DNA of 64,000 nt from a virus (taxonomy: Duplodnaviria > Heunggongvirae > Uroviricota > Caudoviricetes). Of the stretch, positions 2 through 14,775 are shown piece by piece. The position numbers were made by a program, and so were the translations under genes. Position 1 is the first letter of the stretch, and every line of letters starts with the position of its first letter. The stretch spans positions 1 through 64,000 of the IMG/VR virus record IMGVR_UViG_3300033069_001798; one strand, written 5' to 3'. The notes beneath the pieces are model-generated. The model saw only the letters and a program-made list of their open reading frames with translations. It did no database searches and was not told the origin of the DNA.

Positions 2-235
2 GTTCTGGTCGTTCCCACGTTCAAGAGAATTTCAATGAATCCGCACGAGGCAGATCACTTCCTCAAAGTGAGGCAATCAAAGATTGCAGATGATTTCGCC
101 GTAAACTTCTGCGTTGCTGTATACGTAAACAGCTTCAAAGTTGACGGTTTGCAGTACGTGTGGATCTTGCTACCAGACGGTCGTGTTATCTCTACGTACG
201 CCGGCTCCGTTAAAGAGCTGCAGTGGGTTGAATGA
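2..235 (+). CDS. small GDLV-family protein (5' end outside window)
   Basis: The frame is open back to the window start ('…LVVPTFKRIS MNPHEADHF…'). C-terminal 'ILLPDGRVI…ELQWVE'. Confidence 0.45.
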   Translation, partial: VLVVPTFKRISMNPHEADHFLKVRQSKIADDFAVNFCVAVYVNSFKVDGLQYVWILLPDGRVISTYAGSVKELQWVE

Positions 236-459
236 ATATCGAACCTGGAGATCTTGTCTGCTCGAAGAGCAAGTTCATATCAACCTGCAATCCGATATCT
301 GGTTATTACCTGGGTCAGTGCTTGGTTGACGATGAAGTGTTGCTGTGCGTCGGTGTCTTCATTATCGAGCCTACCCAGTTTCATCGCAATCGCATCATGG
401 TGATGCGCGAAACTGGTGAGCTGGTTGTTACGTACGTCGACAACGTGTTTTTCATCTGA
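232..459 (+). CDS. small GDLV-family protein
   Basis: 'MNIEPGDLVCS'; ATGA overlap with the previous stop; C-terminal 'ETGELVVTYV'. Confidence 0.5.
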   Translation: MNIEPGDLVCSKSKFISTCNPISGYYLGQCLVDDEVLLCVGVFIIEPTQFHRNRIMVMRETGELVVTYVDNVFFI

Positions 460-471
460 TGAGGTGTCGCT

Positions 472-633
472 ATGAAAGTTGGTGACTTGGTTGTCCCACG
501 AAAAAATTATTTGCCAGAAGCGTGCATCATCATAGGGTTTGGTCAGCTCAAGTCAGGAGCGACTTGGGCTTGGGTCTTGCTGTTCAGCGGACGCGTCAAC
601 AGATACTACGTTGGTGCACTAGAGCTGCTATGA
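472..633 (+). CDS. small GDLV-family protein (53 aa)
   Basis: Translated by hand: MKVGDLVVPRKNYLPEACIIIGFGQLKSGATWAWVLLFSGRVNRYYVGALELL. GAGGTG Shine-Dalgarno 6 nt upstream. It falls below the ORF-track length cutoff. Confidence 0.5.
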   Translation: MKVGDLVVPRKNYLPEACIIIGFGQLKSGATWAWVLLFSGRVNRYYVGALELL

Positions 634-848
634 AGATCGGCGATCTGGTCTGCAGCGACTCGAGAGATCTGTACGTCCTCACGTTGAAAGCACCCTATGA
701 ATATGGTCTTCACGGCTTCGAAGTTCCCGGTTCTGGACCTTTCGTGTACGTTGGTATTAGCGGTCGTGGCAACGGAAGCTTGGTTCTTATCTTGCTTCCG
801 TCTGGTGTCTTGGTAGAAGTTCATCCATCAAGACTAAGGCCTTTGTAA
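630..848 (+). CDS. small GDLV-family protein
   Basis: 'MKIGDLVCS…ILLPSGVLVEV'; ATGA overlap. The track ORF 522-848 carries a spurious N-terminal extension. Confidence 0.55.
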   Translation: MKIGDLVCSDSRDLYVLTLKAPYEYGLHGFEVPGSGPFVYVGISGRGNGSLVLILLPSGVLVEVHPSRLRPL

Positions 849-12018: not shown

Positions 12019-12035
12019 CAATAGTAAGGTGAATT

Positions 12036-12055
12036 GCCTTGCATGTGCAAGGCAC
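12036..12055. promoter_or_regulatory. perfect 20-nt palindrome tgccttgcaTGtgcaaggca between the array and the MVP gene (terminator-like hairpin or operator)
   Basis: Read directly from the sequence. It lies 18 nt after the array's last stop and about 40 nt before the MVP start. Confidence 0.3.
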
Positions 12056-12093
12056 TGAAGTGCACAAACGGAAAGAAAATGAGGAAAAACGAA

Positions 12094-14775
12094 ATGGCTG
12101 AAGAGACCCGTAACGAGCGTGATCTGATTCTTGCACCCAACGAGTATGCGCTCGTTAGCGATGCCACGAAAGGTAGCATCGATTGCTACGTCGGACCTTT
12201 CAAGACCAGCCTTGCTGGAACTGACAGGTGCGTTCTGTTCGACAACCAGAAGAAGAGGTTTCGTCCTGTGTCCCTCAACGAGGGAACGCAGCTCTTCTAC
12301 ACCGCCCCTGAAGGCTGGTACATCATCCTGAAGAACGCCGCCGAAGGTGAGAAGCATCCTGCGGGCTCTGGAAAGCTGACGACCCCGACGCTTCGCATCG
12401 GCAAGAAAGTCAACATCTCGGGTCCCGCATCGTTCGCGCTCTGGCCGGGTCAGATGGCAAAGGTCATCCAGGGTCACAACCTTCGCAGCAACGAGTACTT
12501 GCTCGTTCGAGTCTACGATGAGGAGGCTGCTCGGGCGAACTGGAGCAAGGCTGTCATCAAGACGCAGACTGACGGCGAAGGTGCAGCCACGAAGGGCGTC
12601 TCTCGTGCCAACATCGACATCCCGTCCGAGAAGGACCTGACGATGGGCAAGCTCTTCGTCATCCGCGGCACGGACGTTTCCTTTTACATCCCGTCGACTG
12701 GTATCGAGGTCGTGCCGGAGAAGGTCAACGGTGAGGAACGATACGTTCGCGAGGCTGTCACTCTGGAGCGACTGGAGTACTGCTTGCTCCTCGATCAGAA
12801 CGGAAACAAGCGCTACGTTCACGGTCCGGACGTTGTCTTCCCTCGTCCGACTGAGAAGTTCGTGGAGGCTCCCATCAAGAGCAACCCTGAGAAGGCAAAG
12901 GCGAAGAAGTTCCGAGCTCAGGAGCTGACGCCTGCATCGGGCATTCACATCAGGGTCATTGCTGACTACACCGAGAAGGATGGAACTGTTCACCTCGCTG
13001 GTGAAGAGCTCTTCATCACTGGCCGTGAGCAGACGATCTACTTCCCTCGCGAAGAGCATGCCATCATCAAGTACGGTGAGCAGGAGATCCACTACGGCAT
13101 CGCTATCCCGACTGGTGAGGCACGCTACGTGCTGAACCGCGAGACCGGCGTCATCAACCTCGTCCAGGGTCCGCAGATCTTTCTGCCCGATCCGAGGAAG
13201 GAAGTCATCATCCAGCGCGGCCTGCCGCTGAACCTCTGCGAGATGCTTTACCCTGGAAACAGGGACGCTCTGGAGATCAACGCAACGCGCCTTGGGATCG
13301 ACGACCAGGACATCTTTGGCGCTTCGTCTGGTGAAGTCGCTCTGTATGCTTCTGCTGTCGCGCGCGGTGTCACTGACTACGATGCGATCGGTGCCATCGC
13401 AACGAACGATACGACTCGAAAGGTCATGATCAAGGGTGCTTCGAAGGCCCTGCCGGGTGATGCATTCGATCGCAAGACGAAGTACACGCCCCCGCGAAGC
13501 ATCGTCTTGAACACTCGATACGATGGTGCTGTCAGCGTCACGCTGTGGACTGGTTACGCTATGCTTCTCGTTCGCAAGAACGGTGACCGACGCGTGGTCC
13601 AGGGTCCCGGAACGTACATGCTGGAGTACGATGAGAACCCGCAGGTGATCACTCTGTCGCGAGGCAAGCCGAAGACGATGGACAACCCGCTGAAGACTGT
13701 TTACCTTCTGACGAAGGCGAACAAGGTTTCTGACATCGTCGAGGTGGAGACAAAGGACTTTGTCAGGCTTCAGCTGAAGATCAGCTACAGGGTTGACTTC
13801 GAAGGCGACGAGTCGAAGTGGTTCGCCGTCGACAACTACGTCAAGTTCTTGACGGATCACATGAGGTCTCGCTGCCGCAACGCAGTGAAGAAGCTCGGGG
13901 TCGAGGAATTCTACAGCAACAGCACGGACATCCTCCGCGACGTTGTTCTTGGAAAGGCTGGTGCTGATGGAAAGCGGGCAGGAACTGCTTTCGATGAGAA
14001 CGGCATGCGCATCTACGATGTTGAAGTTCTCAACGTCTCGATGCTCAACAAGGAAGTGGAGAACCTCCTTTCTGGTGCGCAGAAGGACGTCATCCAGAAC
14101 ACGCTCTTCCTCGCTGCAGAACGCAGGAAGCTCGATTTTGTCAGGGAGTCTGAGGAACTGAAGCGCCAGACCGAGCTTGCTCGTGCTGAAACGCAGCGGG
14201 CAATCATGGAGCTCCAGGTCGAGACTGCGAAGAAGAAAGGCGAGCTCGATCTCATCGTCCTGGAGACGAACGCTCGGACAGAGGCAGAGACGCTTGCGAA
14301 GAAGCTTGAGGCTGAGAAGTCTCGTGCAGAGATCGCGGTCGTCACTCGCCGCGAGACCGAGGTTGATCGTGAGCTGCAGATTGCTCTCGATGCAAAGGCT
14401 CAGGAAGTGAAGATCAACCTCATCCGTGCAGAGGTGCAGGCGCTGGTCGACAAGGCACACGCTGTCTCGCCGGATCTGGTCGCTGCGCTTCAGGCATTCA
14501 GCGAGCGTCACATGCTCGAGAAGGTTGCTGCATCGATGGCACCCCTCAGCATCATGGGTGGCACCAGCGTGGTCGACGTTCTCAAGAAGCTTCTCGAGGG
14601 CACCGCTCTCGCCAAGCAGCTTGACACTGTCGCCCCCGCAGTCGCTGCCGCAGTCGGTGGAAACGGCAAGACTTCCGCGAAGACCCTCCAGGGCTTACGC
14701 AGAGTTAACGCTCAACAGCGAACAGGGACTGGCCTACGGGTCGGTCCCTGTGTGCATTTGTGCGCCGCGGCATGA
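12094..14775 (+). CDS. MVP: major vault protein homolog (full length, 893 aa from ATG 12094)
   Basis: GAGGA Shine-Dalgarno 9 nt upstream of ATG 12094. The N-terminal region has 'ILAPNEYALVSD…YVGPFKT' followed by repeated vault-repeat-like segments ('…GEELFITGREQTIYFP…'). Then comes a shoulder-like region, a roughly 150-aa coiled coil ('ELARAETQRAIMELQVETAKKKGELDLIVLETNARTEAETLAKKLEAEK…') and a C-terminal 'SPDLVAALQAFSERHMLEKVAASMAPLSIMGGTSVVDVLKKLL' segment. This order is colinear with eukaryotic MVP (repeats, shoulder, cap-helix, cap-ring). The length equals that of human MVP. Confidence 0.85.
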   Translation: MAEETRNERDLILAPNEYALVSDATKGSIDCYVGPFKTSLAGTDRCVLFDNQKKRFRPVSLNEGTQLFYTAPEGWYIILKNAAEGEKHPAGSGKLTTPTLRIGKKVNISGPASFALWPGQMAKVIQGHNLRSNEYLLVRVYDEEAARANWSKAVIKTQTDGEGAATKGVSRANIDIPSEKDLTMGKLFVIRGTDVSFYIPSTGIEVVPEKVNGEERYVREAVTLERLEYCLLLDQNGNKRYVHGPDVVFPRPTEKFVEAPIKSNPEKAKAKKFRAQELTPASGIHIRVIADYTEKDGTVHLAGEELFITGREQTIYFPREEHAIIKYGEQEIHYGIAIPTGEARYVLNRETGVINLVQGPQIFLPDPRKEVIIQRGLPLNLCEMLYPGNRDALEINATRLGIDDQDIFGASSGEVALYASAVARGVTDYDAIGAIATNDTTRKVMIKGASKALPGDAFDRKTKYTPPRSIVLNTRYDGAVSVTLWTGYAMLLVRKNGDRRVVQGPGTYMLEYDENPQVITLSRGKPKTMDNPLKTVYLLTKANKVSDIVEVETKDFVRLQLKISYRVDFEGDESKWFAVDNYVKFLTDHMRSRCRNAVKKLGVEEFYSNSTDILRDVVLGKAGADGKRAGTAFDENGMRIYDVEVLNVSMLNKEVENLLSGAQKDVIQNTLFLAAERRKLDFVRESEELKRQTELARAETQRAIMELQVETAKKKGELDLIVLETNARTEAETLAKKLEAEKSRAEIAVVTRRETEVDRELQIALDAKAQEVKINLIRAEVQALVDKAHAVSPDLVAALQAFSERHMLEKVAASMAPLSIMGGTSVVDVLKKLLEGTALAKQLDTVAPAVAAAVGGNGKTSAKTLQGLRRVNAQQRTGTGLRVGPCVHLCAAA
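14723..14750. other. 7-bp stem hairpin (CAGGGAC…GTCCCTG) inside the 3' end of the MVP ORF
   Basis: Read directly from the sequence. No U-tract follows it. Confidence 0.2.

Follow-up and report, generated by a model that had tools for sequence, protein, structure and literature searches.

We analysed a 64,000-nucleotide stretch of viral DNA (positions 1 to 64,000 of IMG/VR record IMGVR_UViG_3300033069_001798, Caudoviricetes; hereafter the window), which opens with a long array of small genes followed directly by a gene for a major vault protein (MVP) homolog. We found 51 co-oriented small open reading frames (ORFs) of 53-102 amino acids each, which tile positions 35-12018 on the + strand and form one paralog family with a predicted SH3-like fold. 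The "fifty or more diversified small beta-barrel-like proteins" noticed in a first-pass annotation of this DNA are thus real, and the last array gene indeed ends at 12018, as stated there. The array is cut at the window start, where its first gene has an ORF already open at base 2. Longer assemblies of close relatives show that family members begin about 5 kb further upstream, which implies ~70 members over ~17 kb in the genome, and that the whole + strand run of small genes starts ~9 kb upstream of the window, at a divergent junction. At the other end, the + strand block goes on past MVP to ~22.9 kb, with a strain-specific insertion carrying a GIY-YIG gene as its sole interruption. The first-pass annotation had described array and MVP as one co-oriented block: adjacency and shared strand were confirmed, but the block runs beyond both ends that had been given for it.

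The array genes are tightly packed. Start and stop codons overlap by 4 nt at 34 of the 50 junctions and overlap otherwise at a further 7, gaps of at least 30 nt occur at only 5, and all 51 reading frames are intact with their start/stop overlaps kept. As judged from gene order, this layout is suited to polycistronic expression over long, translationally coupled runs that share the direction of MVP. The sequences of the five gaps (849-888, 4403-4462, 8295-8387, 9808-9846 and 10305-10353, all +) would allow for internal promoters. The first two have GCTGTGCAC in common, with a -10-like TAnnAT 17-18 nt further on, and similar elements (TGGTACAGT/TGGTTACAGT) stand upstream of MVP in the related loci L004, L005 and L007 (L numbers denote our MVP and array loci); all of these are possible phage promoters. 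The motif showed no significant enrichment in the window and was dropped as an array promoter motif; scans for sigma-70 promoters and intrinsic terminators gave results at or under chance level. A perfect hairpin with a 12-bp stem was observed at 8780-8804, inside the array gene at 8639-8866.

The relationship among the small proteins is not an artefact of their joint alignment, since hidden Markov models (HMMs) built from either the odd- or the even-numbered genes gave held-out genes a score exceeding the shuffled 1% level in 44 of 51 cases. The family HMM matched 50 ORFs in the first 1-12 kb versus a single one in the other 52 kb of the window, a lone dispersed member at 22718-22957 (+; E 1.5e-5). 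Common to the array proteins are an N-terminal K-x-G-D-L-V, a hydrophobic strand in the middle that ends in G and, at the C-terminus, an 'h-L-L-P-s-G-x-h' turn. The near-invariant positions are confined to the N-terminal G-D-L-V, which is predicted to form strand beta-1 of the barrel core at a predicted local distance difference test score (pLDDT) of ~95. The predicted fold is a five-to-seven-stranded SH3-like small barrel, with the conserved residues in the core, whereas protein lengths and loops vary; isoelectric points range from 4.1 to 10.1, and 19 of the 51 proteins are acidic. A hydrophobicity scan, run without a dedicated predictor, gave no evident signal peptide or transmembrane segment, and marginal hydrophobic 19-mers were seen in three members. 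Two genes 3' of MVP resemble the family in part. The 90-amino-acid protein p90 (15580-15852, +), which is conserved in L004, matches the iterated family HMM over its full length, though weakly (E 0.0025 among 6 sequences), and is possibly a very divergent member. The 154-amino-acid protein p154 (15884-16348, +), conserved and found near MVP in several lineages, has an N-terminal V-G-D-L-V motif as its sole feature in common with the array family.

Outside close relatives, the family is hardly detectable. Window members had no family match in Pfam or PHROG, and none of the 49 members compared with the curated SH3 families of Pfam matched at E<=0.1; weak Pfam SH3 matches were confined to the sister family in L007. 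A search of 1.84 billion representative proteins returned only 36 matches at E<=1e-3. Among these, multi-domain matches (P0141, P0143 and P0154) were considered as fused arrays and rejected as unrelated repeat proteins. Word-indexed searches retrieved 7 proteins for the window family and 8 for the L007 family, all from close relatives, and a back-translated scan of IMG/VR for VLT..GVGWV gave 10 loci, which is near chance level, with L082 alone a genuine array. An origin of the small genes from MVP repeats was also rejected (family HMM against MVP, E 0.56).

The 893-amino-acid product of the gene at 12094-14775 (+) is an MVP homolog with a beta-rich N-terminal half, an SPFH-like shoulder and a cap helix of ~135 residues. 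The MVP call made in the first-pass annotation is borne out by a Pfam MVP_shoulder match of 2e-30 (105.7 bits, cut-off 25), which identifies the shoulder (SPFH-like) domain, and by matches to solved MVP chains from rat and human (4e-20 over residues 339-811, with the alignment running to 802-825). Band_7 scores 24.1 bits against a cut-off of 23.6. As to N-terminal vault repeats, Vault_3 scores 33.3 bits (cut-off 28.8), Vault lies just under its cut-off of 27 at 26.6 bits, and the alignment to the solved chains starts only at residue 339. An AlphaFold2 model is confident for residues 480-780 and includes the cap helix (653-787) at a pLDDT of 70-90; residues 1-478 are modelled as beta-rich with low confidence, too poor for repeat counting. 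The phage MVP probably builds a vault-like cage. An in-frame ATG at 12079 offers an alternative start, but homologs begin with 'MA...', which favours the previously proposed start at 12094. In all, MVP has more than 6000 homologs at E<=1e-10. GC content at third codon positions (GC3) is 0.71 in MVP versus 0.55 in the array, 0.43-0.62 in other measured phage genes and 0.28 in the GIY-YIG insertion. This value suggests either very high expression of MVP or a separate evolutionary history.

The spacer between the last array gene and MVP, i.e., the MVP leader, comprises 75 nt (12019-12093, +) and carries an AGGA Shine-Dalgarno sequence ~8 nt before the ATG at 12094. It is nearly invariant in relatives, whereas the 3' end of the preceding gene varies. 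Within it lies an inverted repeat, TGCCTTGCA-TG-TGCAAGGCA, at 12035-12054, the 9-nt arms of which are fully complementary. This element had been reported as a perfect 20-nt palindrome at 12036-12055; the inverted repeat exists, but it lies one position further upstream and its TG centre is unpaired, so that 18 of the 20 positions pair. A perfect 20-nt version with a CG centre is found in L003. The arms are unchanged in four relatives (L003, L008 and L071/L072) and the centre differs (TG, CG or CA). Perfect hairpins of this size occur at 4 distinct sites in the 64 kb, which is about the first-order Markov expectation. Among 92 loci, the palindrome occurs only upstream of MVP and is absent elsewhere, the array start included. 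From its position and conservation, we infer that it may act as a 5' RNA stem-loop of the MVP message or as an operator for a dimeric regulator. A scan for intrinsic terminators found no terminator-like site between array and MVP. Read-through from the array into MVP would thus be possible, although the MVP leader has a private element.

The array carries the marks of local duplication followed by long divergence. The best paralog of a gene lies at a median distance of 4 genes, a closeness reached in none of 5000 simulations (P<2e-4; 15.3 genes at random), which points to local tandem duplication. Pairwise identity within the array does not exceed 39%, so the duplications must be old. Across four comparisons between strains, comprising 21-37 orthologous pairs, array orthologs had ratios of nonsynonymous to synonymous polymorphism (pN/pS) of 0.25-0.30, compared with 0.01-0.10 for p90, p154, p286 and GroEL. 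The array copies are under moderate purifying selection, weaker than that on the neighbouring single-copy genes. Genomes that are 90-99% identical differ by whole array blocks. The window region 8078-8910 is replaced in L003, the 2.5 kb at 3885-6419 are missing in L008, and the L070 array has a different gene set. The two intervals are hot spots of gene-content change among strains at this level of identity.

We then surveyed the linkage of array and MVP within 10 kb on either side of each MVP locus, using HMMs for the window family (A1) and for the families of L007 (A2), L086 (F86) and L087 (F87). IMG/VR yielded 60 viral MVP loci, and we defined as a clade the phages with an MVP at least 57% identical to that of the window, which comprise 18 lineages. 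Large arrays adjoin MVP in 6 of the 18, 1-5 family members are found in 8 (L009, L011, L012, L013, L014, L016, L023 and L091), and none in 4 (L004/L010, L005/L006, L015 and L032, the last two being partial loci). Arrangements differ among the six. The array lies upstream of MVP and is co-oriented with it in the window species, lies on both sides in L086 (72% MVP identity), is divergent upstream and co-oriented downstream in L088 (70%), and flanks MVP on both sides, mostly divergent upstream, in L007 (67%). In L087 (73%; array at 690-9538) and L092 (69%; 2453-8700), arrays of a second family lie upstream. Four of the six large arrays (window, L086, L088 and L007) belong to one superfamily: hhalign gave 93% probability (E 4e-7) for the window family and for the L007 family against that of L086, compared with 0.1-0.2% for reversed-sequence controls, and the barrel core is conserved across A1, A2 and F86 in lineages with MVPs only 67-72% identical. 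The second family forms arrays of 20-38 genes whose products are marked by an RPGM/D-hydrophobic motif at the N-terminus and W-x-x-h at the C-terminus. It is doubtfully related to the first, with which it has only the N-terminal 13-16 columns (the PGD/M-hydrophobic motif) in common, at a probability of 59-77%.

MVP is found without an array in L004/L010 and L005 (71% MVP identity), and where MVP is more distant (37-54% identity; ~47 loci, LR756500 and LR756501 among them), zero or a single family match was seen. Conversely, IMGVR_UViG_3300033067_002020 (L082/L089/L090) carries a ~20-member array of the same superfamily at 6.8-16.2 kb, and no MVP was found in its positions 1-27.2 kb, i.e., in the 6.8 kb upstream and 11 kb downstream of the array. 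The linkage, for which conservation in related genomes had been proposed as a check, thus recurs in one third of the clade lineages, but each partner also occurs without the other, and it is dispensable both ways. An initial reading of the 60 IMG/VR loci, according to which linkage is not conserved at all, was dropped after arrays had been found in L086, L087, L088 and L092.

What is kept across the clade, with or without an array, is the synteny of MVP with a 254-amino-acid protein (p254), IF-1, GroEL, an AAA ATPase and an ADP-ribosylglycohydrolase. Of the genes right beside MVP in related phages, that for p254 (14791-15555, +) is conserved best. Its homologs are immediate downstream neighbours of MVP in L004/L010 and L011 and immediate upstream neighbours in L012 and L016, and in L009 a homolog stands 2.7 kb upstream. 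In L092, a 253-amino-acid gene downstream of MVP occupies the position of p254 and is a candidate counterpart by place alone. Matches of p254 to nanobodies in the PDB were weak (E 8e-4 and worse) and were treated as spurious, and p254, p90, p154, p710 and p286 had no Pfam or PHROG match. Judging by this conservation, p254 outranks the array as a candidate partner of MVP. The remaining genes form a module on the - strand (21025-29481), which related phages have conserved downstream of MVP. It comprises an IF-1/eIF-1A homolog (21025-21297; Pfam 2.9e-19), GroEL (23535-25160), the AAA ATPase (26666-28558) and the ADP-ribosylglycohydrolase (28729-29481). The shoulder of human MVP has an ADP-ribose pocket (bioRxiv 10.64898/2026.05.01.722283), and one may speculate about a tie between such a pocket and the phage ADP-ribosylglycohydrolase.

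Taken together, the array may best be explained as a tandemly expanded, fast-turnover family of SH3-like binders in a variable genome arm, which would lie beside MVP by inherited synteny; we give this explanation about an even chance of being right. The array would be a lineage-specific multigene family, with at least 51 members in the window and ~70 in the genome, next to a conserved core module that starts with MVP. Each member could serve as a small, individually specialised binding module for different host or phage targets, and the function could be of the accessory host-takeover or counter-defence kind that is typical of expanded families in large viruses. The array proteins would be no obligatory part of a vault-like shell, and MVP would be regulated through its own leader element. 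The synteny of MVP regardless of arrays, together with its distinct GC3, places the arrays at a plastic boundary beside the conserved MVP module.

Several points weigh against this explanation. The binder and counter-defence function of the array proteins is something that we purely infer. The N-terminal PGD-hydrophobic motif is common to all arrays, the second family included, and could in principle be a docking signal. Adjacency of array and MVP recurs despite rearrangements in the 6 lineages, and in 14 of the 18 one or more family members lie no further than 10 kb from MVP. Such recurrence could stem from a functional tie and not just from synteny; enrichment near MVP was gauged against the rest of the sequence only in the 64-kb window, as ~20 kb around MVP were seen in most genomes. 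Moreover, recent duplicates, as a classical accordion still in progress would show, are missing from the array (maximum identity 39%).

The first-pass annotation had instead proposed that the small proteins are vault-associated cargo or adaptors, for which we found nothing positive beyond adjacency, and MVP without an array as well as an array without a neighbouring MVP both exist, which are the observations that this annotation itself had named as refuting the idea. The SH3-like proteins would, in this case, dock on the inner wall of the phage MVP cage as cargo or client adaptors. The window array does adjoin MVP on the same strand with no terminator-like site found between them, arrays flank MVP in differing arrangements in six clade lineages, and lineages lacking arrays nonetheless have 1-5 family members at a distance of at most 10 kb from MVP. 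In addition, the N-terminal motif extends even to the second array family, and eukaryotic vaults recruit their contents through a wall-binding domain, namely the MINT domain of PARP4, which binds the MVP wall (bioRxiv 10.64898/2026.05.01.722283). However, MVP is widespread in array-less phages, one array lacks a neighbouring MVP, and the side, orientation and even protein family of the arrays vary between lineages. The small proteins show no likeness to the MVP-interacting domain of PARP4 (~160 amino acids), either by sequence or among the top 60 fold matches, and their conserved GDLV is a predicted core strand (beta-1, pLDDT ~95) rather than a flexible targeting tail. MVP also has its own codon usage and private regulatory palindrome, and its consistently conserved neighbour is p254, not the array. 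We therefore regard a vault repertoire as unlikely, and what chance we leave it comes from the adjacency that recurs through rearrangements and from the N-terminal motif common to all arrays. A more elaborate version appears still less probable, namely that the phage MVP cage and dozens of SH3-like adaptors form a sequestration organelle with a combinatorial adaptor library. Its clients would be, for instance, defence proteins of the host that are sequestered in the cage or factors of the phage that are protected there, and docking would occur through the common N-terminal PGD-hydrophobic strand region.

Ranking between these two versions in our estimate, and likewise doubtful, is a role as nucleic-acid- or ribosome-binding barrels, i.e., KOW-, Sm- or PsaE-like modulators of host transcription or translation. 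In the PDB, ribosomal protein L21e gives a weak match to the family profile (E 0.6-1.3), and the IF-1 homolog and other information-processing genes lie nearby. Against such a role, the wide range of isoelectric points and the 19 acidic members among the 51 speak for no common basic surface, no KOW or Sm signature was found in Pfam, and a need for seventy distinct binders of nucleic acid is hard to rationalise. We consider it very improbable that the proteins are cell-wall-binding SH3b modules, resembling those of endolysins, for entry or lysis. They are stand-alone proteins of 53-102 amino acids without a catalytic domain or an evident signal peptide or transmembrane segment, the window family has no Pfam SH3b match, and some seventy copies in a translationally coupled run are unlike any lysis cassette. 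There is equally little chance that the array consists of functionless debris of old duplications, i.e., of neutral, decaying ORFs, even though homologs outside the lineage were not detected and gene content varies by strain. All 51 frames are intact and their overlaps preserved, the barrel core has been conserved between lineages with no more than 67-72% identity in MVP, and the pN/pS values of 0.25-0.30 over the 21-37 orthologous pairs of the four comparisons largely refute such decay.

Other genes of the window lie outside the unit of array and MVP. The GIY-YIG homing endonuclease (16611-17480, -; Pfam GIY-YIG 2.8e-14; GC 0.39) is carried by the ~0.8-kb insertion at 16713-17525, which is absent from L003 and L008 (95-97% identical) and resembles a mobile insertion that entered the + strand block recently. 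A 439-amino-acid protein (60880-62199, -) combines a TnsA-like endonuclease N-terminal domain with a dCMP/cytidine deaminase domain, an unusual fusion; the TnsA-like domain is weak (24.5 bits, just below the cut-off of 26.5). The window also encodes UvdE, Fpg, an RNA ligase and a dCMP deaminase. It is 95-99% identical to a 313,755-bp metagenome contig of the Joint Genome Institute and to several other assemblies, and a megablast of its 10-16 kb region against 50,697 phage records gave no match. Its MVP is 45% identical to the MVPs of the published huge phages LR756500 and LR756501. The ~314-kb relative, the gene content and this likeness indicate that the window derives from a huge phage.

Some 70 tandem, diversified single-domain proteins over ~17 kb of a ~314-kb genome are unusually many for a bacteriophage and recall what giant eukaryotic viruses have in the way of multigene families, and we found no report of small-gene arrays beside a phage MVP in the searchable literature. 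The array points to a large unexplored set of putative small binders, in which one could look for host targets or for activities against host defence. The function of vaults has been an open question for decades, and a viral or prokaryotic MVP with few conserved neighbours may provide a tractable system for it. Even if the arrays are unrelated to the cage, the comparison of loci points to better candidate genes for MVP partners.

The phage MVP is a true homolog of that of the eukaryotic vault, with shoulder domain, long cap helix and possible vault repeats. The idea of wall-bound contents stems from the eukaryotic particle, in which the MVP shell is joined by PARP4 (with its INT/MINT domain), TEP1 and vault RNA. 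The eukaryotic shell is a closed 78-mer cage (39+39). No homologs of PARP4 or TEP1 were seen by Pfam on the larger ORFs, alongside a scan for transfer and transfer-messenger RNAs in which vault RNA was not searched for, and the small phage proteins are SH3-like barrels of 53-102 amino acids, unlike the MINT domain. Borg elements also have MVP-like genes. Among phages, the human-gut Caudoviricetes ctOa11 and ct2Ri15 encode MVP, and the surrounding genes differ between phages (bioRxiv 10.1101/2023.11.10.566534). Together with LR756500 and LR756501, they likewise represent a phage-borne MVP of bacterial-type sequence, but unlike the window phage they have no small-gene array beside it. Among the loci compared, arrays accompany MVP only in the sub-clade in which MVP identity is 57% or more.

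In encapsulin operons, cargo genes lie beside the shell gene and their products carry a short terminal cargo-loading peptide. In the window, too, candidate contents are encoded immediately next to a shell gene and share its strand. However, the array family lacks a conserved flexible terminal peptide, as its sole conserved terminal motif is a core beta-strand, and one to few cargo genes compare with dozens of candidates in the array. Moreover, array and MVP do not show the obligatory linkage of shell and cargo. SH3b domains of endolysins and NlpC/P60 hydrolases are also different, since the window proteins stand alone, without an enzyme partner domain, an evident export signal or sequence-level membership.

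A further parallel is found in large DNA viruses, which have expanded multigene families such as the ankyrin/host-range genes of poxviruses and the multigene families of African swine fever virus, known as the 'genomic accordion'. As in these viruses, tandem paralogs lie in a variable arm, nearest copies are most similar, copies vary among strains, and surfaces are diversified on a conserved scaffold. The present case differs in that the virus is a bacteriophage, that the unit is a whole protein of 53-102 amino acids instead of a repeat protein, and that all duplications are old. Neighbouring paralogs that are most similar to each other, variation in copy content and maintenance by selection, which together characterise viral tandem multigene families, were all found in the window array. 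This array can be classed as an expanded viral multigene family with an SH3-like scaffold.

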